From assembly GCA_023268715.1 (NCBI GenBank), contig JALRLV010000001.1, positions 6,383 through 70,382 of the forward strand: a DNA stretch of 64,000 bases. The letters are read 5' to 3'. The position numbers and the translations under genes were made by a program. Of the stretch, positions 3,904 to 30,880 are shown piece after piece; the first letter of the stretch is position 1; every line of letters starts with the position of its first letter. The notes under the pieces are model-generated. The model had not been told where the DNA came from and searched no databases. It saw only the letters and a list, made by a program, of their open reading frames with translations. Origin of the DNA: Candidatus Thalassarchaeaceae archaeon. GTDB lineage: Archaea; Thermoplasmatota; Poseidoniia; Poseidoniales; Thalassarchaeaceae.

Positions 3904-3904
3904 T

Positions 3905-5416
3905 TCAGTTCCCCTTAACAAACAACCATTTTCCATTTCCTTGACGAATGTTTCCATTTTTTTCAAGTGCGAGTAAGTGAGAATAGGTCTGATCTCTCGC
4001 AAGGTTTGGATGTGCATCCGGAGTGTCAGCATATGCTTGAACGGTAATCGCATCAAGGCTGCCGTCGCTTGATTGCACTGCATTCAACACTCTTGAATGG
4101 CGTTCATTTCTATGCTTCAAATATCGTGTCAATAATCTCCTCGGATTTGCAACCATAGGACCGTGACCGGGAAATAGAAGTGAAGGGTCTAAATCTCTCA
4201 GACGTTCCAATCCTGCGAGATATTCGTTCATATTTCCATCTGAGGATGGGACTAGAATCGTACCAAATAGGACAGCGTTATCTCCACTTACAATTCCTGC
4301 TTTACCAACCAAGCATATGTGTCCCGGACAATGGCCATGTGTCTCGATAACGCTCCATTTTTCATCATCAATCTCGATTACATCTCCCTCTCCGAGAGTT
4401 CTGTCAGATTCACATTTTGGCAATACCGCAAGTGTCTCTTTACTGGCAAAAATAGGTGCTTGATAAAATTTAGAAATCTCAGATAAATCACCGATGTGGT
4501 CTGGATGCTTGTGAGTAAATACAGTTGCAATAATTTTACTTCCTGACTGCTCTATTTCAGCAACCTTATCCTTCAGGATTTCCAAGGCTTCAATCGATCT
4601 AGCGGCAGGGTCGACTAGGATTCTACTTCCGCCAGGATGGCCCAAAACATAGCAATCGGTATGAGTTGCAGGTGGAAGTGTGTCTGTTGGTATTGGTACT
4701 AGCTCGACACCGTTTGCATATTCGATTCTATGATATCCACTTGGAGGGTTTTTGGCTAATTCTAAGAATCCTATCTGAACAATGTCGCGAATAAGTGTAA
4801 CTTGAGGAGGTGGTAATTTTACCTCATGTGAAAGCCAAGCGTCCAGTAACTCGTTTGGCTTCCACCACTGGAATTCATCAAATTCTGTTCGGCCACTAGG
4901 AAGTTTTGCTTCAATTGAAGCGTCTCCCGTTGCGACATGATAGAATCTATTTTTGTGACGAATTGGTGCAACGGGAGGAGTCGTTCTTTGGGTAATTAGA
5001 GATGGGTTAAAATTGTCAATTGATAATGTTCCTTCAGAAACTAGTTTTGCCCATTCTGATTTATTTTCATTGACTTGGTCGATAATTTCGACTTGCATAT
5101 TCTGGAATCCACCACTTCCATCTGGTGCAACCCCTACTTCTTCCAGCATCTCTCTCAATAGAGCAATTAGCGATTCACGGTCCTCTCTTTCTGAAAACCA
5201 AGAGGGGTTATCTTCCGCTGCTTCTCTATCCACTCTACTTATTCCACCGCCTGGGAATGCCCAAAAGTCAGGAAAACTTGGGACTTCTGAGACTCTGTGA
5301 CAGAGCAGAATTTCCATCTCTTGACCTGAGTTTCTACTGATTACTGCTGCAGCCGAAGGACGAGGTTTTGCAACCTCTGCCGAGGGTAACTCGACCCCCT
5401 CTGGCAACTCACTCAT
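3905..5416 (-). CDS. NUDIX hydrolase domain fused to a metallo-beta-lactamase-fold hydrolase
   Basis: The N-terminal half has FPGGGIS...LLREMLEEVGV (Nudix box REUXEEXGU). The C-terminal half has FTHKHPDHIGD (HxHxDH), plus HGHCPGH and PGHGP. Confidence 0.75.
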   Translation of the reverse strand: MSELPEGVELPSAEVAKPRPSAAAVISRNSGQEMEILLCHRVSEVPSFPDFWAFPGGGISRVDREAAEDNPSWFSEREDRESLIALLREMLEEVGVAPDGSGGFQNMQVEIIDQVNENKSEWAKLVSEGTLSIDNFNPSLITQRTTPPVAPIRHKNRFYHVATGDASIEAKLPSGRTEFDEFQWWKPNELLDAWLSHEVKLPPPQVTLIRDIVQIGFLELAKNPPSGYHRIEYANGVELVPIPTDTLPPATHTDCYVLGHPGGSRILVDPAARSIEALEILKDKVAEIEQSGSKIIATVFTHKHPDHIGDLSEISKFYQAPIFASKETLAVLPKCESDRTLGEGDVIEIDDEKWSVIETHGHCPGHICLVGKAGIVSGDNAVLFGTILVPSSDGNMNEYLAGLERLRDLDPSLLFPGHGPMVANPRRLLTRYLKHRNERHSRVLNAVQSSDGSLDAITVQAYADTPDAHPNLARDQTYSHLLALEKNGNIRQGNGKWLFVKGN

Positions 5417-7454: not shown

Positions 7455-7530
7455 TGGTAGTCCCTCCCGGATTTGAACCAGGGTCATGGCATCCAGAGTG
7501 CCATATGATGGACCGCTACACTAAGGGACT
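7455..7530 (-). tRNA. tRNA-Gln (anticodon CTG), CCA encoded
   Basis: The reverse complement is AGTCCCTTAGTGTAGCGGTCCATCATATGGCACTCTGGATGCCATGACCCTGGTTCAAATCCGGGAGGGACTACCA. The acceptor pairs AGTCCCT with AGGGACT. The anticodon stem is TGGCA/TGCCA with loop CTCTGGA. The T arm is CCTGG-TTCAAAT-CCGGG. Confidence 0.9.
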
Positions 7531-15120: not shown

Positions 15121-15137
15121 CAACCCCATAGGGGTTG
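15121..15137 (+). terminator. Perfect 7-bp/3-nt-loop hairpin after the stop codon
   Basis: CAACCCC-ATA-GGGGTTG lies 20 nt after the stop at 15101. No U tract follows, so its function is uncertain. Confidence 0.3.
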
Positions 15138-15170
15138 GAAAAACATCATCCCATTAGGCATAATAATGAA

Positions 15171-18100
15171 ATGAAATTCGGCCAAGCCATGATGTCCCTG
15201 TCCACGAACGCCCAATCTGAATCAAAAGAAGGTCGAGTAGCGATTTTCTTGGTTATGCTGATGTTAAGTTCTACAATGCTATCATTGGTTCCAACCGTAT
15301 CCGCTTCACGCATTACTCAATATGCTGTTCAGAGAGATCCCTCTTTCATTTCGATAGGGGATATTGACTGTGACGATCACAATGATATCGTCTCGGCTAG
15401 TTCAATGGGTCACTTCATTACGGCACTCTACAATGACGGCATGGGTGGATTTGGAGACAGGCAGGATGTCTTCATCTCTAACAACGATTCATTCCGCGCT
15501 GGATTCAGGGATACAGCTGACGGAACTAGAGTCTATGTTGCCGATGTTGATGGTGACGGTGTTAACGACGTTGTCTATTACCAACAAAACATCCGATTCG
15601 TTGGAGGGCCCATGGTTCCTGGAAATCTCACTGTACTTTGGGGAGATTGTGATGAAAGAATCAACAATTGGAATCCTTCTGAGGCAATTACAGTTAGCAA
15701 CCCATATCTTCAGGACATGGATGTCGAGGATATCGACGGAGATGGAGATGCAGATATTGTAATGAATGTAGTAGACCCTACCTTCACAAATAACTACATC
15801 AACATATACAAGGGTCCTGATCCAACTCAAATAACAGCCCAACAAACTATTCCAGTTCCACTAACCACTGGATTGTACACGAACCTAATTCTAGGTCATT
15901 GGGGAGAGGATGTTCTCGGTGGTGGAATCGGCGGTTCTCTAGGTGATTGTGAAGATATGGACATTTGGCTGCTACGTTCCCCTCCATATAACACAGGTGT
16001 GGGATTCTCAAACGGCCACTATGACAACATGACTGTGCTTGAATACGACTGTACACTTGGAACCTATCCAAATCCCTTAGATGCAACTGCAAACGGCGTA
16101 CACAATTTCAAATTGGATGCCGAACACAACTATCCACTGTACGGAATCGACATTTCTGATACAAATGATGATGGTGAAATAGACCTGATTGCTGCAGTTG
16201 ATGGAATTACAGGCAATATATCCTATGCAACCCGTACAGGTTCATCTTGGGACACTCAAAATTATGTCACTCTAGGAGACTACTTAGGCGCCTCCATTAC
16301 CATTGCTGATGTTAATCGAGATGGAAAAATGGATTTCTTTGTTCCAACAGAGGTTACTCTAACTCGCTTGCAGGATTCAAGTGCACAGAACCAAACATAC
16401 CTGCTAGTAGACAATCTACGTGAAGTAAATACAGTAGAAATCATTCTCGGAAATCCTAACGGTAATGGGTACCTATCATCGCTTTCCTTCGATGTTGGTC
16501 GCCGACCTACCATGGCAGTTCCAGGTCAACTTGCAGGTGGAGAGAACAGTGCTTATGAGATAGCCATTGGACAGAGAGACAGGTCATACCGATTCGCAAA
16601 TAGCGCTATGTGGCTTGATACTCAAGGATGGGCCGGAGCTGGTGATTTCCTATCCGTCCTCAGTCTAGACAACGAAGATGTAGGAATAACAGAGGTTAGT
16701 ATTGCACCAGCGGCATATGATCCAGCGACGGGAGCAGCAATGATTGGCGAGGGTAACCGATTTGTCAACCTAACTGTGAAAAATACTGGTCTAAACCCTA
16801 TTTCAGGATCAATTGATGTCGACTTAGAAGTTAAGGAAGTTCTCGATGGAATCGACACCCTAGTCTACTCAAATGACTTCGAGGGCAACATCGACAATGC
16901 CAATTGCCCATCTTGTACGATTGTCCTAAAATCATACACCGGGGAATACGCTGCTGGCTCATCCTCATGGCACAAGGAATCGAATGCATCCCTCGATTCA
17001 AACGGTTCAGCCACGGACGATTGGTGGGAAGCTGACACAAACCCGACCACCTATATGTGGGCCGGAATGGACCATAACAACGAAGACAACGAATCTGGTT
17101 ATTACAACAACATGGATGAGGCATTCATTATCGAAAATGTAGATTTGACTGGTGCCGATGCGGCATATCTAGACTTAGATCTGTTCTGCAGCGCAGCATT
17201 CTTTGAATTGTATTTGGCCGAGCAATATGCTGTAGTTGAGCGTTGGTTGTATGAGGATTCCTGTGGTATCGAAGTTTGGAGTGATGGTAACGGATGGGAA
17301 CAAGTGTTCTTCACCGGTGGTTGGGACAATGAGAGATACCTGCGGCTCTACGGATTCGGATATGACCCGGAATACAACACATACAATGGAAACTTTGCGA
17401 CAAATACAATCTCACCTTGGGCCAGTTACTCTGGAGAAAATGCAATCGACCTTACTCGGTATGCAGGTGAGGTTATCGACATCCGATTCCGCTTCCGAAG
17501 CGGATTGATGGGAAGCGTTGGCCCAGACGGTTCGTCTCAGGACACTGGATTGGATGGGTTCGCGTTCGACAATATCTCGATTCGCAAAACCGATGTAATA
17601 TTCGGTTCCGAAGAAGTAGTGAGTCAAACTCTTACATTCTCTAACTTCGCAGCTGGTGCTACCGAAGAAGTTTCACTCACTGCTGATTTCATTGACAACC
17701 GAACCTACTACATCAAGACTGAATTGACCAATCCTAACGGATTCAACAACGCAGATGCAACAAATGACGAGGTCAAATTCCAAATTACTGTCAAGAACCT
17801 ATTCGACCCGGGTGTTGCAGAGGAGCCATGGCTTAGCCTAGAGAATGGATTGAGATATGCATCGGGCGATCGCGACATAGAGATTAGAGTTCAGAATTAT
17901 GGAAACACTTTGACCGACTTCCAATTGGAAACTGTAGTCAGGAACGCTCTTCCCGATCTAATCGCCATAGAGGATTTCTCAGGGTTAGAACCGATTTGGG
18001 AAGATGATGGAAACCAAAATGGAAGCCGTTTAGATGATACAAATGGAGACCATCCAATGCTACCACAAAGCAGAGGAGTCTTCAATTCCTTTGCATATTG

Positions 18101-21100
18101 GTTAGGTGACCCAGACGCAGGTTATGGGGACAATTGGGACGAGTCTCTAACTCTCGATCCATTCCAAGTCGCAGTTGGTGGAACCGACTTCACTTACCTA
18201 ACGTTTGATTACTTTGCAGAGGGAGATTATCTATCGGATTCGAATGGAAATATCCTCGCGATACGCGACGCCGCGGGACTAGAAATTGAATGGTCTAAAG
18301 GTGGAGAAATCTATCGCGGAACCGTTTGGGGAAGTTGGACGGATCTAAACGAAAATGGACTGAGGCCCTTCCAAGATGGTAGTGGCCTTGGGGCGTGTGA
18401 AGATTTCGACAATAATGGACGACTTGATGAAGTAGAATACATGGGTGACTATTCCGATCGTTACGAGTCGGTAGTTTGGTTTGATTCCGAAAGCTTAGTC
18501 AAATCCGTCATAATTGATATGACCCACATCACCCTGCTAAATCAGACCTCCAATGACACCTTTGAGTGGAGAGCCGAGTGCACAGATCTATCGGGGTCAG
18601 AAGTTACCTTGACATGGAGATTCCAATCGAATGACGACGGGGTCAATGGGAATGCAGGTCTTGCTGGATTTGCAGTTGACAACATTCGTATCGATGAATT
18701 CACTTTCGAAGATGACGGAACTTACATCAGTGACATCAACGGATTGGATGCTTCAGAGCGCCAAGACGTTACGGTGGCGACCCACGACTTTACGTCCGGT
18801 ATTTATCGAATAGACAGTAGGACTTTATTCAACAACACTATTCAAGGAACATCCTGGTTCAATCAATCAGAGATTACAACCGCGAATAACAACACCCAGA
18901 TTATATTCAGTATCGCAAGCGCCGACATAACCTTGATGGAACCAAATGTGCTTGATTGTGTCTCCGACATTACATACAAGTGTGCATACACATACGACTC
19001 GGCATCTCAGCACTCATTCACAGTACCGCTACTGAATGGAGTAATCGCAGGTGAATATGAGGTTAACATGAAGATTGTAGATATGACAACAGGTCAGACT
19101 GTCTACGAACAAGCGGCTGATAATGGGCCGTTCGATCTTGAACCTCATGCTCGAGACTTTGCCAATTGGACCGCGCCATACAATGGATGGTATGATGGCC
19201 GTAAATACAACATCAGTTTCTATGCAATATTGACTGAAGATGGAGACCCATCAGGAAACGACCGTTTCTTCGAGATTGAATTCCATGACACCGTCGACGT
19301 CGCAATTCTGTCTAACCCTACCGACCAGAATCGTTTGCAGAGGGTAAAGCAGGACCTAGAATCGATGGGTATGACATACACTCAACTATCGGTAAGCGAT
19401 TGGGATAGATACGCTACCGAAAATTGGATGTCACATTACGAGAAGATATTGCTACCATGGCAGACCGACTACAATGTCGAGTATGGAGAATACTACGAGA
19501 CCCTCGCATCCACCAGGGACTCTGACGGTCTATCGGTTACGGAGGTTCTAGAAGCATACATGGTAAATGGAGGAACTGTTCAGATTCACCTAGGACCATA
19601 TCGCAACGAATACCAGCCAAATCGACTGCCTTTCGGAATGGACATTGCAATGCGAAATCAATGGAATAATACAGTCACAAACGAAGACCTAGTGATTGTC
19701 GATGCTTACCACCCATTGATGACTAACGTCGACACTGCAGCCTTCGCAGGGGTTCATGGCGGATCTTACGTTGCTTTGGCAGGACTCGATACTGCACAGG
19801 TACAGTTCGACCAAATTCCACAAGTCTGTGGTGGCCGAATTAGCGATCCAACTGGAACCTTCCACACATTGATGCGAAGCGAATCATTCGATTCACAGTC
19901 ATTACTTTCGATTTGTAACCGTGGTGCAGGTGGAATGATAGTGACTACCTTGGATGTAGAGAATCCAAGCTTCTCTCAACCATTTGGTGGAACATCAATG
20001 CCGCTTCTATCGAATATGCTGGGCTATCATGTAACTCCGTACCCTAACAACTTTGGAATTGCTGGCGATGGATTTGACCTCACAGTGAATGGTGAAGCAC
20101 CCTCTATTGACACAGTAACAGGTGCTTATGCAACCATGTACATCAAGTCGAACTCCGAACTTGATTTCTCATTCTTGACTTCAGATTCATCTTTGGCCGA
20201 TAGCATTACCGCTGATTGGACATTACAATCCACAGACATGAATGAATCAGTCACAGGATGGTCAGGAGAGATAATTGACTATGGCGAAATCAGTCATTCC
20301 CGTCAAATCAGTCCTAGCATACCAGCATTGGGTAATTTCTGTGTTGGTGACACTAGCTCCTCCACAGGATGTAGAATAGGAGCAGAATGGCTTCTGACAT
20401 TGTACTTGCACGATGAAAACGGTCATACGCGAATCACTTACATTCGTCTCGTAACCGACGACACATTAGCTGATGAATTCCGACCTAACGCAGACTTACA
20501 ACTAATCGAAGACGACGTTACAGAAGAGTTTGTCAGCCTTGATGGAACTAAGACAGTCGGCGGTGTGGATTGGCCTATTTATCGAGTTAGATTGACCGAC
20601 AGCGGCGACATCAGTTTGTCCTTTGATTCTTCAGCAAGCTCTGATGATGACGCGCCAGAGGGTGAGAGAGGAATTGAGATGTTTGAGTACAGAGTATTCT
20701 TCGATTATCCTGTAGATTCTACAAATCCAACACTAGAAGGCCACACTTTCCAAGTGCCTAATGCAGCTGGTGGTGACATGTGGAATTACGTATTCCGAAA
20801 CATGACCAGTGATGGAACTTTGGAGAATCAAATTAGGCTAGAATTGATTGTATACGATCGTGCTGGAAAACAGTCAGATAAGGCACGAATTTACTTCATT
20901 GTGGTCGGAGAAGACTTCGGAGATGACCCACCAGTTGTCGATATTACTTCACCTCGTTCAACAGATTCTCAGAGTGAGGATTTGGTCACAATCAATGGAG
21001 TTGTGACTTCGGGTGCTGAAAATGGTGTTTTGATTGAGGTGGCATTGGATCCATCGGTTCTAGATTTGACTCCATCTCCTAAGGCAACTCAGAAGGCGCT

Positions 21101-21605
21101 AGGAAAGTATAACTCAACAGGCCCTGCTTTGCTTGGAGACGGTGATACCTTCACAATCACTCTCAACATTGCAGACCTTTACTTGGATACTACCGGAAAG
21201 CAGGTCACGGTATATTGGAGAGTTATCGAGGGTGACCGATATGAGTTGAATAACGAATTCACAATCGACTTACTTCCTCGATCAAGTGACCCATGTGCCC
21301 TGAATCCTTCAGATGCTGGTTGTGTGTCAGATAGTGGTGGTACCGATGTAATCATGTTCGCTGCTATCGGAGTTATCATGATTCTGGCAATTGTTGGTGT
21401 AACTCTAGTTCTTAGATCGAGAGGCAAGTCAGATGATAGTCAAGACACCGTCCAACAGTTTGGTGGTGTAGAGCAAATGGACCCAGTCGAAGCATATGTG
21501 CAACAAATGGTCGGCCAAGGCTATGACGAGGCTACTGCGAGGCAATATGCCGAGCAATATTACGCAGCATATTATGCCCAACAAGGGAAAGGCGGCGGCA
21601 ACTGA
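15171..21605 (+). CDS. Giant secreted, membrane-anchored surface protein with N-terminal FG-GAP/VCBS-type repeats
   Basis: The protein is about 2145 aa from ATG 15171. It has the signal-like segment VAIFLVMLMLSSTMLSLVPTVSA. Repeated Ca-binding DxDxDG motifs are present: DIDCDDHNDIV, DVDGDGVNDVV, DIDGDGDADIV, DTNDDGEIDLI and DVNRDGKMDFF. Two MAM/immune-inhibitor-A-like jelly-roll ends are seen (GEVIDIRFRFRS...GLDGFAFDNISI and VTLTWRFQS...GLAGFAVDNIRI). The C-terminal TM helix is VIMFAAIGVIMILAIVGVTLVL, followed by a Q/Y/A-rich tail. Confidence 0.85.
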   Translation: MKFGQAMMSLSTNAQSESKEGRVAIFLVMLMLSSTMLSLVPTVSASRITQYAVQRDPSFISIGDIDCDDHNDIVSASSMGHFITALYNDGMGGFGDRQDVFISNNDSFRAGFRDTADGTRVYVADVDGDGVNDVVYYQQNIRFVGGPMVPGNLTVLWGDCDERINNWNPSEAITVSNPYLQDMDVEDIDGDGDADIVMNVVDPTFTNNYINIYKGPDPTQITAQQTIPVPLTTGLYTNLILGHWGEDVLGGGIGGSLGDCEDMDIWLLRSPPYNTGVGFSNGHYDNMTVLEYDCTLGTYPNPLDATANGVHNFKLDAEHNYPLYGIDISDTNDDGEIDLIAAVDGITGNISYATRTGSSWDTQNYVTLGDYLGASITIADVNRDGKMDFFVPTEVTLTRLQDSSAQNQTYLLVDNLREVNTVEIILGNPNGNGYLSSLSFDVGRRPTMAVPGQLAGGENSAYEIAIGQRDRSYRFANSAMWLDTQGWAGAGDFLSVLSLDNEDVGITEVSIAPAAYDPATGAAMIGEGNRFVNLTVKNTGLNPISGSIDVDLEVKEVLDGIDTLVYSNDFEGNIDNANCPSCTIVLKSYTGEYAAGSSSWHKESNASLDSNGSATDDWWEADTNPTTYMWAGMDHNNEDNESGYYNNMDEAFIIENVDLTGADAAYLDLDLFCSAAFFELYLAEQYAVVERWLYEDSCGIEVWSDGNGWEQVFFTGGWDNERYLRLYGFGYDPEYNTYNGNFATNTISPWASYSGENAIDLTRYAGEVIDIRFRFRSGLMGSVGPDGSSQDTGLDGFAFDNISIRKTDVIFGSEEVVSQTLTFSNFAAGATEEVSLTADFIDNRTYYIKTELTNPNGFNNADATNDEVKFQITVKNLFDPGVAEEPWLSLENGLRYASGDRDIEIRVQNYGNTLTDFQLETVVRNALPDLIAIEDFSGLEPIWEDDGNQNGSRLDDTNGDHPMLPQSRGVFNSFAYWLGDPDAGYGDNWDESLTLDPFQVAVGGTDFTYLTFDYFAEGDYLSDSNGNILAIRDAAGLEIEWSKGGEIYRGTVWGSWTDLNENGLRPFQDGSGLGACEDFDNNGRLDEVEYMGDYSDRYESVVWFDSESLVKSVIIDMTHITLLNQTSNDTFEWRAECTDLSGSEVTLTWRFQSNDDGVNGNAGLAGFAVDNIRIDEFTFEDDGTYISDINGLDASERQDVTVATHDFTSGIYRIDSRTLFNNTIQGTSWFNQSEITTANNNTQIIFSIASADITLMEPNVLDCVSDITYKCAYTYDSASQHSFTVPLLNGVIAGEYEVNMKIVDMTTGQTVYEQAADNGPFDLEPHARDFANWTAPYNGWYDGRKYNISFYAILTEDGDPSGNDRFFEIEFHDTVDVAILSNPTDQNRLQRVKQDLESMGMTYTQLSVSDWDRYATENWMSHYEKILLPWQTDYNVEYGEYYETLASTRDSDGLSVTEVLEAYMVNGGTVQIHLGPYRNEYQPNRLPFGMDIAMRNQWNNTVTNEDLVIVDAYHPLMTNVDTAAFAGVHGGSYVALAGLDTAQVQFDQIPQVCGGRISDPTGTFHTLMRSESFDSQSLLSICNRGAGGMIVTTLDVENPSFSQPFGGTSMPLLSNMLGYHVTPYPNNFGIAGDGFDLTVNGEAPSIDTVTGAYATMYIKSNSELDFSFLTSDSSLADSITADWTLQSTDMNESVTGWSGEIIDYGEISHSRQISPSIPALGNFCVGDTSSSTGCRIGAEWLLTLYLHDENGHTRITYIRLVTDDTLADEFRPNADLQLIEDDVTEEFVSLDGTKTVGGVDWPIYRVRLTDSGDISLSFDSSASSDDDAPEGERGIEMFEYRVFFDYPVDSTNPTLEGHTFQVPNAAGGDMWNYVFRNMTSDGTLENQIRLELIVYDRAGKQSDKARIYFIVVGEDFGDDPPVVDITSPRSTDSQSEDLVTINGVVTSGAENGVLIEVALDPSVLDLTPSPKATQKALGKYNSTGPALLGDGDTFTITLNIADLYLDTTGKQVTVYWRVIEGDRYELNNEFTIDLLPRSSDPCALNPSDAGCVSDSGGTDVIMFAAIGVIMILAIVGVTLVLRSRGKSDDSQDTVQQFGGVEQMDPVEAYVQQMVGQGYDEATARQYAEQYYAAYYAQQGKGGGN

Positions 21606-22960: not shown

Positions 22961-23977
22961 TTACTCATCCTCTTTCCACCAATTTTCTGTGTTAGAAAAA
23001 TCCGGTAGATTGGGTTTCCACTTTTGAGCAATCATTTCATCTGATTCAATAATTTTTGAATGTCTATATTGGAATGCATTAGTTCGTTTTCCAATCGTAT
23101 AATTGTAGAGTTTACTACCGCGAATTTCAGCAGGCACACAGACCTTTCCAGAAGTAGCCTCCACATCAATCGCTCTCTCTAGGTCAAGGGCATGTCGATT
23201 GAGTCTGTGGAGTAATCCAGCTGCAGCCCTACTCACTCCCATAAATAGTGCAAGAATAATTACGAACACCAAGATGAAGCCAAATTGACTCCCCCCAAGT
23301 AAAGTCATGGCTACAGTCCCTATCAAGAATACAATCGGTGCTACAAAAGTAAACAAGAAGAAAGTCTCTGAAAGGGGTTTCCTAGTTTTCATCCGCCCGA
23401 TTATTTCCCATCTAGGATGCTTCGGATTCTGAGGTCTGAAAATTTCCTCCTTCTCCATTTTGGCCGCCTTGTCAACCATCTGCCTAACTCGATCCATATT
23501 CATCAGTTGCTGCCTGTCTGGTTGTTCCATTTCTGTTTCGAACATTATTTCCAACAATTCACTAGCTTCAGAATACATCCCGAGCCGTACAAGAATGGCG
23601 ATTTGTTCGATAAGTGGTGTGACATCGTTCGGGTCAATCTGCCTTCTTTGCTGCCACCATCCTAGGGCTTCCTCTAGCATACCTAGATGGTCAACCAGAA
23701 GATTTCCTCCCATTGCCCATGATTCTGCGTCCTCTGGTTCTAACCTCACGACATTTTGTAATGCGGCATAAGCACTAGCAGCTTGTGGTAGAGTAGGCAT
23801 ATCTTGCACGCCTCTCCTTGCGGCTGGTAGAACCATCCTTGCGGTCATTTTCCAAGCGGCCGCATGGTTGGGCTCCATACGGGTAATTTGGCCACATAAA
23901 TTGAGGGCTTCTTCCCTCTCACCAGACTCTTCTAGCTCGAGAACTTCTTCCCAGAGCATATCCGCCTTGTTCGCCAT
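22961..23977 (-). CDS. TPR-like repeat protein with two central TM helices (hypothetical)
   Basis: The N-terminus has helical repeats (EEALNLCGQITRMEPNHAAAW..., NVVRLEPEDAESW...). TM segments are FFLFTFVAPIVFLIGTVAMTLL and FGFILVFVIILALFMGV. Confidence 0.55.
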   Translation of the reverse strand: MANKADMLWEEVLELEESGEREEALNLCGQITRMEPNHAAAWKMTARMVLPAARRGVQDMPTLPQAASAYAALQNVVRLEPEDAESWAMGGNLLVDHLGMLEEALGWWQQRRQIDPNDVTPLIEQIAILVRLGMYSEASELLEIMFETEMEQPDRQQLMNMDRVRQMVDKAAKMEKEEIFRPQNPKHPRWEIIGRMKTRKPLSETFFLFTFVAPIVFLIGTVAMTLLGGSQFGFILVFVIILALFMGVSRAAAGLLHRLNRHALDLERAIDVEATSGKVCVPAEIRGSKLYNYTIGKRTNAFQYRHSKIIESDEMIAQKWKPNLPDFSNTENWWKEDE

Positions 23978-24024
23978 GTGGCTTGCTCGGGTTTAGACAA
24001 AATGAATGCTCGGGTGCCCCAAAC

Positions 24025-24774
24025 TCAGCGCCTACCGCTACTTCTTCCCGGCCGATTACCCCGAGGGCCGCCTCGACCAGGGTCTCTGAATCCAGATCTA
24101 CGTGGCTTGCTAGCGCTGCCGGGTGACCGCCCTCTTCCACGACCGGAATGCCCTCCTTGAGGTCTAGAGCCACGGCGTTCATTGCCTCCGCCTCTAGATT
24201 GTGGTTTGCCACCAGAACTAGGCCGATGAGCTTGACAACGATTGCATTTGTCTCTGAAGGCAAAGTTGGAATTGTTACACTTCGGGCAAGTCCAATCTCC
24301 GGATTTTTTGGAATTATTTCCTCCTCGGTCAAATTTTCTTTCAAACTTACTTGCATCATCTCGAGGCCGATCTGCATCACAGCGGTTACACTTCTTTCGG
24401 AAGGCAAAATTGGAGTTATTGCATTTTGGACAATTCCAGTCTCCGCCTTTTTTGTGTTCTTTTCCTCCACTTCGATTATCACGTCGGCCATCTCTCTTCG
24501 AGTATCTATCTCTTCCGTGGCCGCGATTATCTCGTCTTTCTCTTGGAGCTATTTCAACAGGAGAACCGATTGTGTTGGAGTATTCTATTTCGTCAGATAT
24601 TGGATGAATATGAACAAAGGCTCCATCGATAGCTCCAATTACAGAATTCACCTTGCCAATAGGCTTCCCACCGATTATTCGTAAAGTAGCACCTAGCCTT
24701 GGTGCTCGTCCCTCAAAGGCAACGAGGAGACCCCCTTCATGCGACTCTCTGTCGACTGTGCCTGAGAAGCTCAT
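24025..24774 (-). CDS. Gar1-like H/ACA RNP domain fused to 2 RanBP2-type zinc fingers and a C-terminal RGG/GAR tail
   Basis: I took the start at ATG 24774, 5 nt after the upstream stop. The N-terminus GGLLVAFEGRAPRLGATLRIIGGKPIGKVNSVIGAIDGAFVHIHP fits the archaeal Gar1 pattern. DWNCPKCNNSNFAFRKKCNRC and DWTCPKCNNSNFAFRDKCNRC both fit W-x-C-x2-C-x3-N-x6-C-x2-C exactly. The tail is rich in RGG/RGR. Confidence 0.75.
   Translation of the reverse strand: MSFSGTVDRESHEGGLLVAFEGRAPRLGATLRIIGGKPIGKVNSVIGAIDGAFVHIHPISDEIEYSNTIGSPVEIAPRERRDNRGHGRDRYSKRDGRRDNRSGGKEHKKGGDWNCPKCNNSNFAFRKKCNRCDADRPRDDASKFERKFDRGGNNSKKSGDWTCPKCNNSNFAFRDKCNRCQAHRPSSGGKPQSRGGGNERRGSRPQGGHSGRGRGRSPGSASKPRRSGFRDPGRGGPRGNRPGRSSGRR
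24220..24441 (-). repeat. Internal duplication encoding the two RanBP2-type zinc fingers
   Basis: ZnF1 is at 24364-24441 and ZnF2 at 24220-24297. The two are near-identical at protein level and clearly similar at DNA level. Confidence 0.7.
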
Positions 24775-24778
24775 GACC

Positions 24779-26782
24779 TCAGTCGCGTCGGCCCGAGTAT
24801 ATGAGTGCGGCAGATGCCGCAATAATCAGACCGCCTAATCCCATCGAGGGAAGAATTGAGGAGTTTTCCTTTGATGGTTCGGGTTGAGGTTCTGGTTCTG
24901 GATCAACGAACAAGTGAGTATTGTCTACACTACGCTGTTCACTTGAACAAATTCCAGATTCGTCACATGCTTGAACTTCAACGATATGGGCGCCCTCTGA
25001 CCAAATGGAGAAATCAATCTGAGGAGTAGACCACACATTCCCGCTGATTGAAATACTACCAACCGAGGAACCATCAATTATCAGAGTGAAAGAGACCGCC
25101 TCACCATCAGGGTCGGAAAACTGACCGCTCATCGACCATGAATCACCGTCCCATCCTTCGGAATTAACTGTCATTATTGGAGCACTGCTAGCCTTCTGAA
25201 TTCCTAAATCATAAGTCGCTTGCAAAGTATATACTCCATCTCCAGTTACTATTACCGAGACATATGCAGCACCTGGGATGACCCCTACTGTAGCAACTTC
25301 CTGAGTAACTTCAGAGTCTTGAAGTAAAAATGGGCCGGAATAAGTTCCAGCCATTCCAAAACTGGACGTAAATCCAATTTCAACTGACAAATCTGGCCAT
25401 CCTGAGGTTGGAGAGAGAGTGATTGGATGTGGGTCTGATAGGTCAACATTTGTAGTTGATATTTGGAATGGTACTCCAACATTCCAAGTTCTATTTCCGG
25501 AGGATTGGCCGGCACTGTCGATTGCTTCACATGTAACCTCTCCGGCCTGGCCTATTGGGACATCCATGGATAACTCTCGATTTGAGTATGTGATTGCTAA
25601 TCCTGCTTCTCCTCTGCAGTTAACATCGAGACTCGATACTCCCGCTTCATCATCAAACCAATGTTGGACATCGATCCAATCAGCGACGATCTGGGCCCCC
25701 CCGCTCGCCCGAGGGAACCACGCTTCATCAGCTGGGGCATTATCAGTCCAAACAGGTGGTTCGTCCACTGGGATAGGGGCAGTTGTAAAGTCAGCGAACA
25801 AGTCTTCACCTAGAGGCCATTGAGCCATATTCGGGTAGAGGGAGTAAGTCAGGCTCCCATCTTCATTTTCACTAACTCCATGGAAACTAGAACCGTCACC
25901 AACACAACTTCCTCTCAAAGGCGCAACCCCAGCAAAGTCATCGGCGTCAGCTTGCAAGTCCCGTCCTTCACATTCCTCCCACATATCCATACGCAAGCCC
26001 TCAGTTGTGGGGAACGTGATATGATATTCAGCACCACTAATGTTTGAGGCATTGAAGGCTATGGTGAAGTCACTTGGGTTATTCATGCTGGATATTGTCA
26101 TGGTAGCGTTTAGCCAAAGCATCAATCTACATTCATCCTCCCCAATTGATGCATCCAAATCAGTATCGCAATCTCGCTCGTTATCAGGATAGACAGGAAC
26201 TTCGTAGCAATCAGCACTGCTTCCAACACTAGAACATTCTCTCGACTCAGAATGTCTAGGAGGGACAAGATTCCACTCCTCTACCACAACCTCATCTTCC
26301 GTCCAAGAGGTGTTTTTCCAATCTGTTCCTTCGCCGCCTCTGTGAGGGCTACCATCACGCATCCCAATCCTAGTAAGTGTGTATTGAACACATTCGGAAG
26401 CAATGGCACGAACACCCTCTCTTTCATCCGTTGATATCCACTCATCATCTCCACTCGGATAAATTGCAGCAATGTATCGATCCAAACTGTGCCGGACGTC
26501 ATCTGCTAAGGTTCCATTTATCCACGCAACGGCTTGAATTTCTGCAGAATTCCAATCATCATCCACTGTCATTTGAAAAATTGCTTTGCTGTAGTCGAAC
26601 ATATCTTCGAATGTTATCGTACTGCACTGTTCTTCTATCGTAGGACCTCCAGGGCCAAGCTGCTCCCGTTTTTCTTGAGGGTCTTCAAGATGGACATCGA
26701 AATGGTCCAATGGGAGCCACAAAGTCAACAATACAAACATAGTCAACAGAACTGAGATTCTGAGCCTACATTCCCGCTCCAT
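24779..26782 (-). CDS. Secreted acidic surface protein with a PGF-CTERM-like C-terminal anchor
   Basis: Start is ATG 26782 (or TTG 26803). The signal/TM segment is ISVLLTMFVLLTLWLPL. The large extracellular part is D/E/S/T-rich. The C-terminus is EPEPQPEPS...ILPSMGLGGLIIAASAALIYSGRRD. Confidence 0.7.
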   Translation of the reverse strand: MERECRLRISVLLTMFVLLTLWLPLDHFDVHLEDPQEKREQLGPGGPTIEEQCSTITFEDMFDYSKAIFQMTVDDDWNSAEIQAVAWINGTLADDVRHSLDRYIAAIYPSGDDEWISTDEREGVRAIASECVQYTLTRIGMRDGSPHRGGEGTDWKNTSWTEDEVVVEEWNLVPPRHSESRECSSVGSSADCYEVPVYPDNERDCDTDLDASIGEDECRLMLWLNATMTISSMNNPSDFTIAFNASNISGAEYHITFPTTEGLRMDMWEECEGRDLQADADDFAGVAPLRGSCVGDGSSFHGVSENEDGSLTYSLYPNMAQWPLGEDLFADFTTAPIPVDEPPVWTDNAPADEAWFPRASGGAQIVADWIDVQHWFDDEAGVSSLDVNCRGEAGLAITYSNRELSMDVPIGQAGEVTCEAIDSAGQSSGNRTWNVGVPFQISTTNVDLSDPHPITLSPTSGWPDLSVEIGFTSSFGMAGTYSGPFLLQDSEVTQEVATVGVIPGAAYVSVIVTGDGVYTLQATYDLGIQKASSAPIMTVNSEGWDGDSWSMSGQFSDPDGEAVSFTLIIDGSSVGSISISGNVWSTPQIDFSIWSEGAHIVEVQACDESGICSSEQRSVDNTHLFVDPEPEPQPEPSKENSSILPSMGLGGLIIAASAALIYSGRRD

Positions 26783-26842
26783 TACAAATCCGAAAAGGAC
26801 CAAGGAAATATTGCTATCGGCGGCATAATTGTGAAAGAAATT

Positions 26843-26908: not shown

Positions 26909-27985
26909 ATGGTAGGTAGGACACTGATAGCGAGCACAATTATTGGAATAATCCTGTTTTCAACGTTTGCTGGTTGTCTAACGCCTGAAGAGGATGAAAA
27001 TGTAATAATTATTGCATTCAAAACACAGGATGATTATGACAACCCAGAAGCAAACCCACAATTATTGGCAGATTTTTTGGCTAAAAAATCTGGTTACAAA
27101 TTTGAATTATATCCAATAGGCTCCGACATCGCGGCAATAGAAGCGTTGCGTTTTGGCCATGCTGATATTGCATTCCTAGACGGCGGCTCGGCATGGATTG
27201 CCTGGAAGCAGCACGGACTGGATGCTATTCTTGCTGATCAAAAAGGAGATGGTAGGACTTACTATGATGCCCAAGCATGGGTTCTAAACGATTCTGAAAT
27301 TCAAACACTTGAGGATCTGGAAGGGAAGAATACCTGTCATACTGGTTGGTTAAAATCAGCTGGTATGCTTATGCCAATGGGTTACATGATAAATAACGGA
27401 ATTGTAGAAGTTACAGGAGATGAAAATGATATTTCTTCTTTGAGAACAACAATCGATGCACACTTTGGAAATGCATCAATACCCGAAAAGGGAGATTTGT
27501 ATTACAGTTACAGTGGTGCCTTCCGATGTATGACTGAAGGAGTGGGTGATGTTGCATTTGGTAAATCATCATCCTATGAGGATCATTGTGAAGGTAATGA
27601 TTGGTGCTTAGATAGAGAAAGTTACAGGTCACTAGAGCCCGCCTTCGGACAGGTTCCAAGTCACCCAATCATGGTGAATAAGGAAGAAACGGAACAAGAA
27701 AAAATCGACGTCATAATTTCATCATTTTTAGAAATGAATAACGAAATGTGGGTTGAAAATTATTCCGTAGGTGGAGAAACTTTCACTGGTTGTTACAATA
27801 CTCAAACACATGTTGTGATCGATACCGTTCCTAAGGAGTCCTGTGGGGGAGAACTCCTACAAAACATACTCAATACTCCATCCATTTCTGAGGTAGATAC
27901 GGAAGAACACCTTGGTTCATATAGCGACGCAATAGGAGCGATTCCAGGGATTGCTGCATACTTCGATGACAAGTATAGTTCGTAA
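26909..27985 (+). CDS. Extracytoplasmic lipoprotein solute-binding protein, PhnD lineage, with transferrin-type Fe3+/carbonate site
   Basis: It has the signal and lipobox STFAGC. Blocks matching the serotransferrin N-lobe are DIAFLDGG, RTYYDAQAWV, NTCHTGWLKSAGMLMPMG, YSYSGAFRCMTEGVGDVAFGK and GQVPSHPIMV. PhnC- and PhnE-like genes follow it. Confidence 0.75.
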   Translation: MVGRTLIASTIIGIILFSTFAGCLTPEEDENVIIIAFKTQDDYDNPEANPQLLADFLAKKSGYKFELYPIGSDIAAIEALRFGHADIAFLDGGSAWIAWKQHGLDAILADQKGDGRTYYDAQAWVLNDSEIQTLEDLEGKNTCHTGWLKSAGMLMPMGYMINNGIVEVTGDENDISSLRTTIDAHFGNASIPEKGDLYYSYSGAFRCMTEGVGDVAFGKSSSYEDHCEGNDWCLDRESYRSLEPAFGQVPSHPIMVNKEETEQEKIDVIISSFLEMNNEMWVENYSVGGETFTGCYNTQTHVVIDTVPKESCGGELLQNILNTPSISEVDTEEHLGSYSDAIGAIPGIAAYFDDKYSS

Positions 27986-28012
27986 GTCGGAGATTCAAGG
28001 GTAGGGGATGAA

Positions 28013-28747
28013 ATGAACACTCAACCTCCAGTCCGCCTAAAATTGGAAGATGCGGCTATTGGTTTCGACCAAGACTCCCCACTTCTGGAATCTGTTGATT
28101 TAGAAATTAGAGCAGGAGAAATCGTTGGTTTGACCGGCAGGTCAGGAATCGGTAAGACGACTCTATTGCGAACTGCTGCAGGCTTGGTCAGTCCACTTTC
28201 AGGCTCAATCGTATGCTGTTGTACAGCAGACACAAGAGCCCAGAAAGGTGCAATTGGGCTAATTCCCCAGCGACTCGGTTTGGTTCAACATCAAACCGTT
28301 GGTTACAATGTACTCATGGGGGCTTTAGCGGGAGCAAACTTTCTCCAAACCGCTCTATCTCTTCCGAGTAAGAAAATGAGGGAAGAAACTCGTTCTGTAA
28401 TCGAAGAGGTTGGTTTGGCAGACAAAACTCTAGAATCTGTAAATCGTTTATCCGGGGGCCAACAGAGGAGGGTTGCAATTGCTAGAGCAATGTTGCAAGA
28501 GCCAGAATTACTTCTTGCAGATGAGTGCCTGGGTGAATTGGATGCAGAAACTGCGAGGGGCATTATCGATTTATTTCGACACATGGCAGATGACCACAAT
28601 ATGGCGATTCTAATAGTCGACCACAATCCAGTTCGAGCCAAAACTTTCTGTGATCGAGTGTACCAATTGAGGGGACGGAGATTAATACCATTCGAGGAGG
28701 AGGAACCATCTTCAGTGCTTCCGATTATTGGGGAGGCTTCCGCTTGA
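28013..28747 (+). CDS. ABC transporter ATP-binding protein, PhnC-like
   Basis: Walker A is GRSGIGKT, the signature is LSGGQQRRVAIARA and Walker B is LLLADE. A PhnC-type insert is present (NVLMGALAGANFLQTALSL). Confidence 0.85.
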   Translation: MNTQPPVRLKLEDAAIGFDQDSPLLESVDLEIRAGEIVGLTGRSGIGKTTLLRTAAGLVSPLSGSIVCCCTADTRAQKGAIGLIPQRLGLVQHQTVGYNVLMGALAGANFLQTALSLPSKKMREETRSVIEEVGLADKTLESVNRLSGGQQRRVAIARAMLQEPELLLADECLGELDAETARGIIDLFRHMADDHNMAILIVDHNPVRAKTFCDRVYQLRGRRLIPFEEEEPSSVLPIIGEASA

Positions 28748-29676
28748 ATGAAAGAATATCAGACTCAATTAGACTAATTATCCGTCGTCCTATACTTCGG
28801 ACATCGATTATTTTGGGTATAATCACAATTTTAGTCACCAATCACCTTCAGATTACCGTTTGGAAACTGGTAGATGGTTGGAGTAATCTGCTCAAGTTAG
28901 GTTCAGAGGCTCTTCCTCCGGATTTCACAGTATTGACCGAGCGTGCTGGGTGGACATATCCTTCCTGCACATTTGAATCCGATATGCTGTGTAGTCCTGC
29001 GGTTGTTGGTATGACACAGACTCTGGAAATTGCATTCCTTTCGACAGTTTTTGGTATGCTAATCTCTCTCCCATTAGCCGCCATGGCTGCAAGCAATCTT
29101 TCCCCCTATTGGTTATCTCAATCAACAAGACAAATCCTCGCGGCATTGAGAGTTTTACCATCTCTTATTTGGGCACTTATTTTCGTGATAGTGGTCGGAG
29201 TAGGGCCACTTGCGGGTGTTCTAGCAATGACGATGTATACAGTAGGTTACCTAGGAAAACTGCAATACGAGGCTCTTGAGGGTGTTAGTAAGGAACCTTT
29301 GGAAGTCGCCCGTGCAATGGGATTACCTCGTTGGCAAGTGGCTAGATTTTTTGCGATACCAGAAGCGAGTAATGCTCTGATTAGTCAGGCCTTATTCATG
29401 TTTGAATACAATGTAAGGCACGGCTCTGTGATTGGCTTGGTTGGAGCCGGTGGGATTGGATGGTACATGAACCACTACCTTAATCCATTCCAACTCTACG
29501 ATAAGGTTCTAGCTTTGATTATCGTAATGTTCGTTGTAGTTGTTTTGATTGACCAGTTTTCTTTGATAGTCAGGAGAGGGTTTATCGATGACACGGCAAA
29601 CTATCAGAAACCTCGTTGGCGTGATGTTTTGATTTCAAAAGATCCTGCACTAAAGAGAGTAAAGAAGGCAGAATAA
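28744..29676 (+). CDS. ABC transporter permease, PhnE-like
   Basis: EVARAMGLPRWQVARFFAIPEASNALISQALFMFEYNVRHGSVIGLVGAGGIGW is the PhnE signature region. A 4-nt overlap with the ATPase gene is present. Confidence 0.85.
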   Translation: MNERISDSIRLIIRRPILRTSIILGIITILVTNHLQITVWKLVDGWSNLLKLGSEALPPDFTVLTERAGWTYPSCTFESDMLCSPAVVGMTQTLEIAFLSTVFGMLISLPLAAMAASNLSPYWLSQSTRQILAALRVLPSLIWALIFVIVVGVGPLAGVLAMTMYTVGYLGKLQYEALEGVSKEPLEVARAMGLPRWQVARFFAIPEASNALISQALFMFEYNVRHGSVIGLVGAGGIGWYMNHYLNPFQLYDKVLALIIVMFVVVVLIDQFSLIVRRGFIDDTANYQKPRWRDVLISKDPALKRVKKAE

Positions 29677-30795: not shown

Positions 30796-30880
30796 GCAGG
30801 GGTTCCCGAGCGGTCAAAGGGGCTGGGTTTAGGTCCCAGTGCGTAGTGCTTCGCAGGTTCAAATCCTGTCCCCTGCACCA
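30796..30880 (+). tRNA. tRNA-Leu (anticodon TAG), long variable arm, CCA encoded
   Basis: The sequence is GCAGGGGTTCCCGAGCGGTCAAAGGGGCTGGGTTTAGGTCCCAGTGCGTAGTGCTTCGCAGGTTCAAATCCTGTCCCCTGCACCA. The acceptor pairs GCAGGGG with CCCCTGC. The anticodon stem is CTGGG/CCCAG with loop TTTAGGT. The T arm is GCAGG-TTCAAAT-CCTGT. Confidence 0.9.

Follow-up and report, generated by a model that had tools for sequence, protein, structure and literature searches.

The window analysed here is a 64-kb stretch of DNA from an archaeon of the order Poseidoniales (Marine Group II), near Thalassarchaeaceae (MGIIb), and the host is thus an archaeon outside the Asgard group, as an earlier reading from sequence only had supposed. 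Poseidoniales, still uncultured, rank with the most abundant archaea of the plankton. An ORF of 249 aa lies on the minus strand of the window, with its ATG at 24774 and its stop codon at 24025-24027. A TTG at 24822 was considered as a longer start and was rejected as unlikely, because the orthologues begin with M/V-SFSG. By AF2 pLDDT the protein has three folded modules and as many disordered segments; the fingers are predicted to fold independently, and the linkers and the tail to be disordered. The genes and features at the locus are as follows.

22961..23977, minus strand: downstream neighbour, 338 aa, with N-terminal TPR repeats (Pfam TPR_14, TPR_19) and a hydrophobic centre that looks transmembrane
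24025..24774, minus strand: complete CDS of 249 aa plus stop codon, a divergent Gar1 to which two RanBP2-type zinc fingers and a tail rich in R and G are attached (ORF, homologues, dN/dS)
24028..24213, minus strand: R/G/S/P-rich tail, residues 188-249, predicted disordered (pLDDT < 50; composition, RG counts)
24214..24303, minus strand: RanBP2-type zinc finger 2 (GDWTCPKCNNSNFAFRDKCNRC), residues 158-187 (Pfam best stretch 157-186, motif, pLDDT ~87)
24304..24357, minus strand: inter-finger linker, residues 140-157, predicted disordered (pLDDT < 50)
24358..24447, minus strand: RanBP2-type zinc finger 1 (GDWNCPKCNNSNFAFRKKCNRC), residues 110-139 (Pfam PF00641, exact motif, pLDDT ~85)
24448..24531, minus strand: charged R/D/G/K-rich linker, residues 82-109 (R 28%, G 19%, D 12%, K 12%), predicted disordered (pLDDT < 50)
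24532..24774, minus strand: Gar1-type six-stranded beta-barrel, residues 1-81 (AF2, Foldseek, profile against PDB, hhalign, dN/dS)
24779..26803, minus strand: upstream neighbour, 674 aa, no Pfam family, with hydrophobic N- and C-terminal stretches which by eye suggest secretion or a membrane anchor; 4 nt separate its stop codon from the Gar1-like ATG that follows

The N-terminal barrel

The N-terminal ~80 residues had been proposed to be a Gar1 barrel from a residue pattern, and this pattern was found in residues 1-81, which also carry the family-invariant SHEGGLL and GxVxxVxG motifs. The curated Gar1 models do not reach their thresholds. With Pfam PF04410 the protein scored 13.7 bits and the isolated domain 17.0, where the cutoff is 29.3, and the NCBIfam Gar1 model NF009632 gave 17.9 bits against a cutoff of 107. 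The barrel is thus unusually divergent, and the Gar1 claim therefore needed other evidence. Pfam Gar1 is the only or the top family match for 15 of 17 family members. When a profile built from 17 N-terminal domains was compared with the PDB, the best six matches were all Gar1, with 2hvy_B at the top (E = 7e-4), and hhalign aligned the barrel family with canonical Gar1 over 77 columns at 99% probability (E = 4e-18). The AF2 model of the barrel has a pLDDT of 87.4 and a pTM of 0.76. In a Foldseek search of the PDB with this model, ranks 1-14 were all Gar1 (archaeal, yeast, human and insect) and Naf1 came after them; 2ey4_D was matched with TM 0.73/0.83 and an rmsd of 2.4.

An exhaustive HMMER search with the barrel in 1.84e9 representative proteins returned just 133 matches. 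Beyond its own family these were short proteins of 75-130 aa, along with two matches to repeat proteins, both at the limit of the E-value. Nine of ten such short proteins tested match Pfam Gar1, six of them over its cutoff, and the reverse search with a canonical Gar1 profile recovered the barrel family. Judged by these profiles and the predicted model, residues 1-81 form a Gar1 barrel. Homologues already bear the name 'rRNA processing protein Gar1 / Zn-ribbon protein', or else 'zinc finger Ran-binding domain-containing protein', in the JGI and NCBI pipelines, and the Poseidoniales proteins are mostly annotated 'hypothetical' or 'zinc finger protein'. There is thus an annotation gap, in which the thresholds of curated HMMs miss Poseidoniales Gar1.

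Zinc fingers and the R/G-rich tail

The two finger strings quoted by the sequence-only reading are present exactly as given, DWNCPKCNNSNFAFRKKCNRC at nt 24379-24438 and DWTCPKCNNSNFAFRDKCNRC at nt 24235-24294, and its claim that both match the RanBP2 consensus holds. The pattern W-x-C-x2-4-C-x3-N-x6-C-x2-C occurs only twice in the six-frame translation of the 64-kb window, and the two matches are the two fingers. Pfam Zn_ribbon_RanBP (PF00641) passes its gathering cutoff of 27 bits over two stretches, scoring 69.3 (E = 1.6e-19). The Trp, the four Cys, the Asn and the Phe of the fingers are invariant or almost so among 23 homologues. In the AF2 model the fingers (residues 110-139 and 158-187) have a pLDDT of ~85-87 with short beta-strands, a predicted zinc-ribbon. 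For finger 1 the best PDB relative is FUS (6g99_B, E = 1.8e-6), followed by Nup153 (3gj8_B), ZNF265 and TAF15; for finger 2 the best PDB sequence match is the FUS ZnF (E = 4.9e-7). The nearest solved finger sequences as a whole are those of FUS, TAF15, ZNF265/ZRANB2, RBM10 and RBM5, with the Ran-binding Nup153 and Nup358 interleaved near the top. The finger of Nup153 in 3gj8_B is Ran-binding and no RNA binder. Both fingers, as judged from motif and profile, are genuine RanBP2-type fingers. The T-F dipeptide is the ubiquitin-binding feature of NZF fingers. An NZF reading of the archaeal fingers was rejected, as TAB2/3, TRABID and HOIP are weaker matches and the T-F dipeptide is absent by eye.

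It had also been claimed that the residues used for ssRNA contact are kept, and this stands in part. The positions which in ZRANB2 contact GGU, D68, N76, R82 and N86, are identical in the archaeal fingers. The W79 position is an aromatic Phe, as it is in FUS, TAF15 and ZRANB2 finger 1, and the V77 position, a backbone contact, is Ser. The R81 position is Phe, and in this the fingers are FET-like, FET proteins having Trp there; because of this change GGU specificity of the fingers is not guaranteed. The DNA of finger 1 and finger 2 is 73% identical, and many of the aligned differences keep the same amino acid. Tandem Repeats Finder called no DNA repeat for the finger units. The pair was considered as a recent slippage or tandem-repeat artefact, and this was rejected on the 73% identity and the amino-acid-preserving differences. 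By comparison of their sequences, the two fingers arose by an old duplication. The view that RanBP2 fingers are essentially eukaryotic modules needs correction, as Sulfolobus ArnA, which is described as having a RanBP2-type zinc finger (PMC6509490), is an archaeal precedent and such fingers are thus not exclusive to eukaryotes.

The tail of residues 189-249 (61 aa) contains 30% G, 26% R, 15% S and 11% P, so that R and G together make up 56%. It had been described as ~60 aa of RGG/RGR repeats; it is indeed R/G-rich and predicted to be disordered, but regular RGG repeats are not what it holds. It is an RG-rich tail and not a regular RGG array, because it has 12 RG/GR dipeptides but just 2 exact RGG, and it has 1 aromatic residue. 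Close (MGIIb) relatives share the C-terminal motif ...GRGRGRsPGSxxrPRRSGFRGxGRGGxRGNRPGRxSGRR. Some orthologues carry textbook R/G repeats, (RGGGGGY)n and GGRSFRDNKGGGRG.

Conservation and genomic setting

Database searches over NCBI, ENA, JGI and Logan assemblies found 430 homologous protein clusters at 90% identity. An orthologue was located in 68 independent loci of Poseidoniaceae and Thalassarchaeaceae, some of them retrieved with single divergent family members as queries, and it is single-copy and in the same syntenic slot in every one. This slot, with the ~670-aa protein on one side and the TPR protein on the other, is kept by the divergent and the finger-less forms as well, and both neighbours are retained in every locus that includes the flank concerned. 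The divergent subgroups P0082, P0089, P0228, P0229, P0356 and P0161 were considered as an MGIII lineage or as paralogues, and this was rejected; they are Poseidoniales orthologues, since all lie in the same syntenic slot. A possible paralogue pair in MAG MED870, which has two copies, was likewise rejected, because both copies are syntenic and the MAG is therefore a mixed-strain bin. The number of fingers among orthologues varies from 0 to 5, and the finger-less ones carry just a GAR-like R/G tail. The proposed fusion of Gar1, fingers and R/G tail is hence right as to an order-wide gene, but the fingers are not a fixed feature of it. Since some orthologues are without any finger, the core function cannot depend on fingers.

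Every segment of the gene is under purifying selection. Against seven close orthologues the whole-gene dN/dS is 0.08-0.18, and that of the barrel is 0.04-0.16. The lowest values belong to the fingers (0.01-0.09; finger 1, 0.01-0.07). The tail, which is kept in relatives, has 0.09-0.17, and the linkers have 0.14-0.42 (residues 82-109) and 0.12-0.41 (residues 140-157).

Neither of the conserved neighbours is connected with RNA modification, one being probably a surface protein and the other a TPR membrane protein. Cbf5, Nop10 and L7Ae are presumably present in the Poseidoniales lineage. Pfam found no gene for any of the three among 39 of the 42 window ORFs of at least 120 aa, the set lying outside three ORFs at 58-64 kb and the shorter ORFs, among which a Nop10 of ~60 aa would fall. 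Rfam found no H/ACA RNA in the 64-kb window, only two tRNAs. A canonical Gar1 profile was searched against 5.8e9 proteins in a word-seeded search with few matches that bore an organism name, and it returned Asgard and other canonical Gar1 together with the Gar1-finger family and no identifiable Poseidoniales canonical Gar1. The result of this profile search is only suggestive that Poseidoniales have no second canonical Gar1.

Probable function and comparison with known systems

Because the protein is the Gar1 orthologue of a Poseidoniales archaeon, it is most likely a subunit of an H/ACA RNP. We favour, with moderate confidence, the reading that it serves the lineage as the Gar1 subunit of the Cbf5-Nop10-L7Ae box H/ACA pseudouridylation RNP, to which flexibly tethered, predicted ssRNA-binding modules have been added. 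Gar1 takes part in the thumb-loop cycle, and it is the sole H/ACA subunit without extensive guide RNA contacts (PMC12710931). By homology, the N-terminal barrel would dock on the catalytic domain of Cbf5 and control the thumb loop and substrate turnover. The fingers, of the FUS/ZRANB2 ssRNA-binding class and carried on disordered charged linkers, could with the R/G tail provide extra RNA contacts, the tail making low-specificity contacts with ssRNA and the fingers short-motif (GGU-like) ones. Close to the active site, these modules could capture substrate rRNA or unfold it, or they could raise the local RNA concentration, and their function may by analogy parallel that of the GAR domains of eukaryotic Gar1.

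A less probable but serious alternative is that the Gar1-derived barrel works apart from Cbf5, as a stand-alone RNA chaperone or a FET-like RNA-binding regulator, and that a separate canonical Gar1, or none, serves the H/ACA RNP. The divergence of the barrel below the curated Gar1 cutoffs is consistent with this, as is the family-invariant SHEGGLL, which lies outside the canonical Gar1 consensus. The disordered R/G segments around RanBP2 fingers resemble those of FUS, TAF15 and EWS, and the genomic context, among the window ORFs scanned, is without RNA-modification genes. On the other hand the gene is single-copy and fixed in position across the order, as a core housekeeping orthologue would be, its barrel is under strong purifying selection, and the hallmark GxVxxVxG strand of Gar1 is kept. 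The canonical Gar1 profile gave just the Gar1-finger family for the lineage, which counts weakly against the alternative in view of the word seeding and the few organism names.

A bolder and rather unlikely proposal is that Poseidoniales built onto Gar1 the toolkit found in nucleolar and FET proteins of eukaryotes, GAR-like R/G disorder and GGU-type RanBP2 fingers, either independently or by exchange with eukaryotes. Such a protein might enable the pseudouridylation and ribosome-biogenesis machinery of a cell with no nucleolus to bind RNA multivalently or even to cluster in a condensate-like way, and the number of fingers, 0 to 5, would then tune valency.

It is very improbable that the protein is a Naf1-like assembly factor, that is, a Gar1-fold protein which takes the place of Gar1 on Cbf5 while the RNP is being assembled and is no mature subunit. 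Naf1 has the Gar1 fold, PF04410 takes in both Gar1 and Naf1, and the Naf1 structures 2v3m and 2eqn are in the Foldseek list, but they stand lower (TM 0.55-0.64 against 0.73) than the top structural matches, 14 of 14 of which are Gar1. A separate mature Gar1 would still be required, and none was seen in the canonical Gar1 profile search of 5.8e9 proteins. We know of no archaeal Naf1, and the factor is to our knowledge a eukaryotic innovation. Finally, an unusual architecture with low-complexity R/G sequence might in theory invite assembly errors, but an assembly chimera or a mis-called ORF joining a Gar1 gene to unrelated zinc-finger or low-complexity sequence is hardly credible, as the same architecture recurs in the 430 clusters from four sources of assemblies, in the single-cell genomes AG-404-A19 and AH-273-F07 and in contigs > 200 kb, with identical synteny in 68 loci and purifying selection on every segment; the fusion is real, as had been claimed.

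If the protein is taken as the Gar1 subunit of the lineage, Poseidoniales Gar1 is a natural experiment, in which predicted RNA-binding appendages have been gained in an allelic series of 0-5 fingers with varied tail repeats. What the GAR extensions do in eukaryotes is as yet poorly understood. The FET/ZRANB2-type subclass of RanBP2 finger is an order-wide feature in these archaea, and this bears on the origin of a 'eukaryotic' module and of the ZnF-plus-RGG arrangement. Literature searches found no publication that describes a fusion of Gar1 with RanBP2 fingers, and the layout of Gar1, FUS/ZRANB2-like fingers and R/G tail appears to be undescribed in the literature searched.

Among known systems, Sulfolobus ArnA is by description also an archaeal protein with a RanBP2-type Cys4 finger, located at its N terminus (PMC6509490). 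ArnA regulates archaellum expression as an FHA-domain protein and is linked neither to Gar1 nor to H/ACA. The fingers of the FET proteins (FUS 6G99, TAF15, EWS), of ZRANB2/ZNF265 (3G9Y, 1N0Z) and of RBM5/RBM10 share the Cys4 signature, which is W-x-C-x2-C-x3-N-x6-C-x2-C in the archaeal fingers. The GGU-contact residues of the ZRANB2 fingers, D-W, N-x-N-F, R and C-N-x-C, are kept, with W79 replaced by Phe, and the fingers are flanked by R/G-rich disorder in the archaeal protein as in FUS. They differ from FET fingers and ZRANB2 finger 1 in having C-x2-C and not C-x4-C as the first Cys pair, and from FET and ZRANB2 fingers generally in having Phe at R81, in sitting on a Gar1 barrel with no RRM, and in their archaeal host.

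Archaeal Gar1, as in Pyrococcus furiosus (PDB 2EY4/2HVY; PF04410, COG3277), is matched by the predicted model in its six-stranded barrel (TM 0.73/0.83, rmsd 2.2-2.4 A, ~77 residues); the GxVxxVxG...P strand aligns and a basic C-terminal region comes next. The Poseidoniales protein is, however, only ~21% identical, falls below the curated HMM cutoffs and has its own invariant SHEGGLL. It also has a C-terminal extension of ~170 residues, with two Cys4 fingers and R/G disorder, whereas the canonical proteins recovered are 75-130 aa long. With eukaryotic Gar1/GAR1 (yeast 3U28, human 7TRC) it shares a Gar1 core with disordered R/G-rich extensions, and the finger-less orthologues P0204, with (RGGGGGY)n, and P0347, whose repeats are GGRTFRDNKGxGRG, are very GAR-like in appearance. 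In eukaryotic Gar1 the core is flanked on either side by GAR domains, and we know of no eukaryotic Gar1 with RanBP2 fingers; the Poseidoniales extension, in contrast, is C-terminal only, with a tail rich in RG, RS and RP, few RGG and almost no aromatics. The archaeal lineage probably acquired this C-terminal extension on its own.

The gene and its N-terminal barrel

The Gar1-like gene starts 4 nt past the stop codon of the upstream gene in the window, and because of this short gap co-transcription of the two is suggested. An alternative start at TTG 24822, giving a longer ORF that overlaps the upstream gene, was rejected because the N-termini of the orthologues read M/V-SFSG. In the full-length AlphaFold model three folded modules (pLDDT 83-91) alternate with three segments below 50, and the whole protein as modelled looks like beads on a string.

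24025-24774, minus strand: Gar1-like ORF of 249 codons, ATG at 24774, stop codon at 24025-24027
Residues 1-81: Gar1 barrel, folded
Residues 82-109: linker 1, pLDDT <50
Residues 110-139: finger 1, folded module
Residues 140-157: inter-finger linker, pLDDT <50
Residues 158-187: finger 2, folded module
Residues 188-249: tail, pLDDT <50

The sequence-only reading had called this protein a fusion of a Gar1 domain, two RanBP2-type fingers and an RGG tail. Single-sequence HMM comparison bears it out for both fingers (Pfam Zn_ribbon_RanBP, PF00641: two stretches, E = 1.6e-19, 69.3 bits where the gathering cutoff is 27) and not for the barrel, which scores 13.7 bits against PF04410 (cutoff 29.3) and 17.9 bits against the NCBIfam Gar1 model NF009632 (cutoff 107). 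Gar1 identity therefore required additional tests. A profile built from 17 diverse N-terminal domains of the family (A1) has as its top PDB match Gar1 of P. furiosus (2hvy_B, E = 7e-4), and the next five matches are also Gar1, the yeast protein 3u28_C among them; Gar1 is the sole or top Pfam match in 15 of the 17 members. AlphaFold2 on A1 gave a confident six-strand barrel (pLDDT 87.4, pTM 0.76). When this model was compared with the PDB by Foldseek, ranks 1-14 were all taken by Gar1 (archaeal, yeast, human and insect chains), headed by 2ey4_D (TM 0.73/0.83, rmsd 2.4 A).

When 1.84 billion representative proteins were scanned exhaustively by HMMER with A1, just 133 matches came back. Those beyond the family itself are short proteins of 75-130 aa, together with two repeat proteins of 494 and 1284 aa whose E-values lie at the limit. 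Ten of the short proteins were checked; nine have a Pfam Gar1 match, six of them above the cutoff, and profile-profile comparison of A1 with the short proteins gave 99% probability (E = 4e-18, 77 columns). In the reverse direction, a canonical Gar1 profile recovers the family of the window protein. From the agreement of profile searches and predicted structure we conclude that the N-terminal domain is a genuine, unusually divergent Gar1 barrel.

Zinc fingers and the R/G-rich tail

A six-frame search of the 64-kb window for the pattern W-x-C-x2-4-C-x3-N-x6-C-x2-C gives exactly two matches, namely the two fingers, whose strings were quoted verbatim in the sequence-only reading. The PDB sequence closest to them is that of the FUS zinc finger (6g99_B; E = 1.8e-6 with finger 1 alone, 4.9e-7 with the pair). 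It is followed by the Ran-binding finger of Nup153 (3gj8_B) and then by ZNF265/ZRANB2, TAF15, RBM10 and RBM5, and the ubiquitin-binding NZFs of TAB2/3, TRABID and HOIP rank lower. It is known that ZRANB2 contacts GGU through D68, N76, V77 (backbone), W79, R81, R82 and N86, and that W79 stacks between the two G (PMC11789483). The stacking aromatic is Phe in FUS, TAF15 and finger 1 of ZRANB2, as it is in the window fingers. These positions were mapped onto what we take to be the ZRANB2 finger-2 sequence, with which the FUS, ZNF265 and TAF15 alignments are consistent. Under this mapping both window fingers have D, N, S, F, F, R and N at the listed positions; four of the side-chain contacts match ZRANB2, whereas R81 is replaced by Phe, the position being Trp in FUS. 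By sequence the fingers thus appear to group with the ssRNA-binding RanBP2 subclass, and we infer that they could be GGU-specific.

At the DNA level the two fingers are 73% identical, and many of the aligned differences leave the amino acid unchanged; no tandem repeat was seen in the finger units by TRF. The duplication of the finger is old. The view that RanBP2 fingers are essentially eukaryotic is too strong, because Sulfolobus ArnA provides an archaeal precedent (PMC6509490).

Glycine makes up 30% of the final 61 residues and arginine 26%, followed by serine (15%) and proline (11%). With 12 RG/GR dipeptides and just two RGG, the tail is RG-rich and not a regular RGG array.

Distribution, neighbourhood and variation in Poseidoniales

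Homologous proteins form 430 clusters at 90% identity (NCBI, ENA, JGI, Logan). The window gene has its closest genome loci in MAGs and single-cell genomes of Marine Group II (Poseidoniales), and the nearest of the titled records are of MGIIb type, e.g. Candidatus Thalassarchaeum (83% identity). Synteny was examined in 66 loci of GTDB species representatives and two metagenome contigs, the searches being seeded with the window protein and five divergent subgroup members. Every locus with flanks present has the same three genes on one strand.

22961-26803, minus strand: conserved three-gene arrangement, in all related loci
Upstream gene: protein of about 670 aa, hydrophobic N- and C-termini, no Pfam family
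Downstream gene: TPR protein, hydrophobic central stretch

In these loci a giant FG-GAP protein follows the TPR protein on the opposite strand, with an AdoHcy hydrolase in between in most, not all, of them, and the identity of neighbour proteins falls to about 28%. Because this arrangement recurs in every locus with flanks, the gene is a single-copy orthologue with conserved position in both families of Poseidoniales. The same searches found no member outside the syntenic context, and the family appears confined to this order. MED870 is the one MAG that holds the region twice, with differing Gar1-ZnF alleles (L041, PAEE01000088.1; L043, PAEE01000068.1); both contigs are syntenic, which indicates a mixed-strain bin, and gene duplication was rejected.

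Several other features of the region were observed. No functional rationale is seen for the gene's fixed place, order-wide, between what is probably a surface protein and a membrane protein with TPR repeats. The FG-GAP-repeat protein of the window (2156 aa, 15135-21605, plus strand) is conserved beside this cluster, at 32-93% identity, in almost every Poseidoniales locus. A transferrin/phosphonate-binding-type substrate-binding protein with ABC ATPase and permease (26909-29676, plus strand) belongs to the conserved neighbourhood in many loci. In a 777-aa protein (30938-33271, plus strand) Pfam recognises an LDL-receptor class A domain (E = 1.1e-18), a domain typical of animals. At the gathering threshold Rfam matches nothing in the window except two tRNA genes (7458-7530, minus; 30796-30877, plus). 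ORFs 3049-4083 and 3905-5416, both minus, overlap by 179 nt; the downstream one (344 aa) has no Pfam match, and its true start is probably at a later codon. A contig whose title assigns it to a bacterial MAG, 'Salinimicrobium sp.' (L015, CAXRAI010000013.1), bears the full Poseidoniales synteny (G3PDH, ABC transporter, ~670-aa protein, Gar1-ZnF, TPR protein, FG-GAP giant); it is probably archaeal and mis-binned.

Of 56 orthologues from species representatives, 11 have one finger, 23 have two, 18 have three and 4 have four; metagenome proteins reach five. Near relatives of the window gene vary by complete finger-plus-linker units, with three fingers in L004, L006 and L008 and one in L007. Proteins P0012, P0018, P0022 and P0048 combine a variant internal finger, C-x2-C-x10-C-x4-C (GDWxCPKCKNHNYANKKVCNRTGC, 'CNRTGC'), with a terminal finger that ends in the canonical C-x2-C; within each of them the units are near-identical tandem copies, and recent expansion is suggested. 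In one subgroup of Thalassarchaeaceae the finger is degenerate and the N-F..R residues are missing. Another clade has no fingers and carries, in the same syntenic slot, a barrel with GAR-like tandem repeats, GGRSFRDNKGGGRGGRGPGG.

L067:10001-10480: finger-less orthologue
L068:2455-2958: finger-less orthologue
P0356, P0161, P0347, P0204: finger-less proteins, Cys4 motif absent; P0204 repeats are (RGGGGGY)n

The shared core of the family is a divergent barrel with a long basic R/G-rich tail, and the fingers are a frequent yet dispensable insert. Nei-Gojobori comparison of the window gene with seven orthologues gave the following dN/dS ranges.

Barrel: 0.04-0.16
Fingers: 0.01-0.09
Linkers: 0.12-0.42
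Tail: 0.09-0.17

All segments are under constraint, the disordered tail included.

Both halves of the protein have already been tagged by automated pipelines: JGI labels many clusters 'predicted nucleic-acid-binding Zn-ribbon protein / rRNA processing protein Gar1', and NCBI labels some 'zinc finger protein' or 'zinc finger Ran-binding domain-containing protein'. Full-text literature searches turned up no account of Gar1 fused to RanBP2 fingers, of archaeal Gar1 proteins with GAR-like tails, or of RanBP2 fingers of the ssRNA type from Poseidoniales. What is new is a Gar1 carrying a lineage-wide accessory architecture.

Possible role in the H/ACA RNP

The solved structures of archaeal H/ACA RNPs are centred on Cbf5; the guide RNA is contacted extensively by all components but Gar1, and Gar1 is tied to the cycle in which the Cbf5 thumb loop opens and closes, a cycle that governs substrate turnover (PMC12710931). 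The most economical reading, and a fairly probable one, is an H/ACA Gar1 that keeps its barrel role and has gained C-terminal RNA-binding additions. Pfam found no Cbf5, Nop10 or L7Ae gene in 39 of the 42 window ORFs of at least 120 aa (Nop10, ~60 aa, lies below the size scanned), and no H/ACA or C/D sRNA family was present in the window at the Rfam gathering threshold.

The protein could also be a Gar1-derived RNA-binding protein or chaperone acting independently of Cbf5, a reading favoured by its divergent barrel and FET-like C-terminus. This main rival is possible though doubtful: the gene is conserved in single copy order-wide, and a canonical Gar1 profile search showed no other Gar1 for the lineage, which argues weakly against it. 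A Naf1-like role is improbable, since in the Foldseek ranking Naf1 comes, with generic translation-factor barrels, below the 14 Gar1 chains. An artefact is scarcely credible in view of the 430 clusters and the constraint on every segment.

If the protein is an H/ACA Gar1 with added RNA-binding parts, the barrel would retain the canonical role at the Cbf5 thumb loop, the fingers in the flexible C-terminal region would supply short-motif ssRNA binding, and the R/G tail and linkers could add non-specific RNA binding. Substrate RNA might in this way be captured or unfolded, or avidity raised, by analogy with eukaryotic GAR domains. It is the repeats of the finger-less orthologues, rather than the tail of the window protein, that look closer to those domains.
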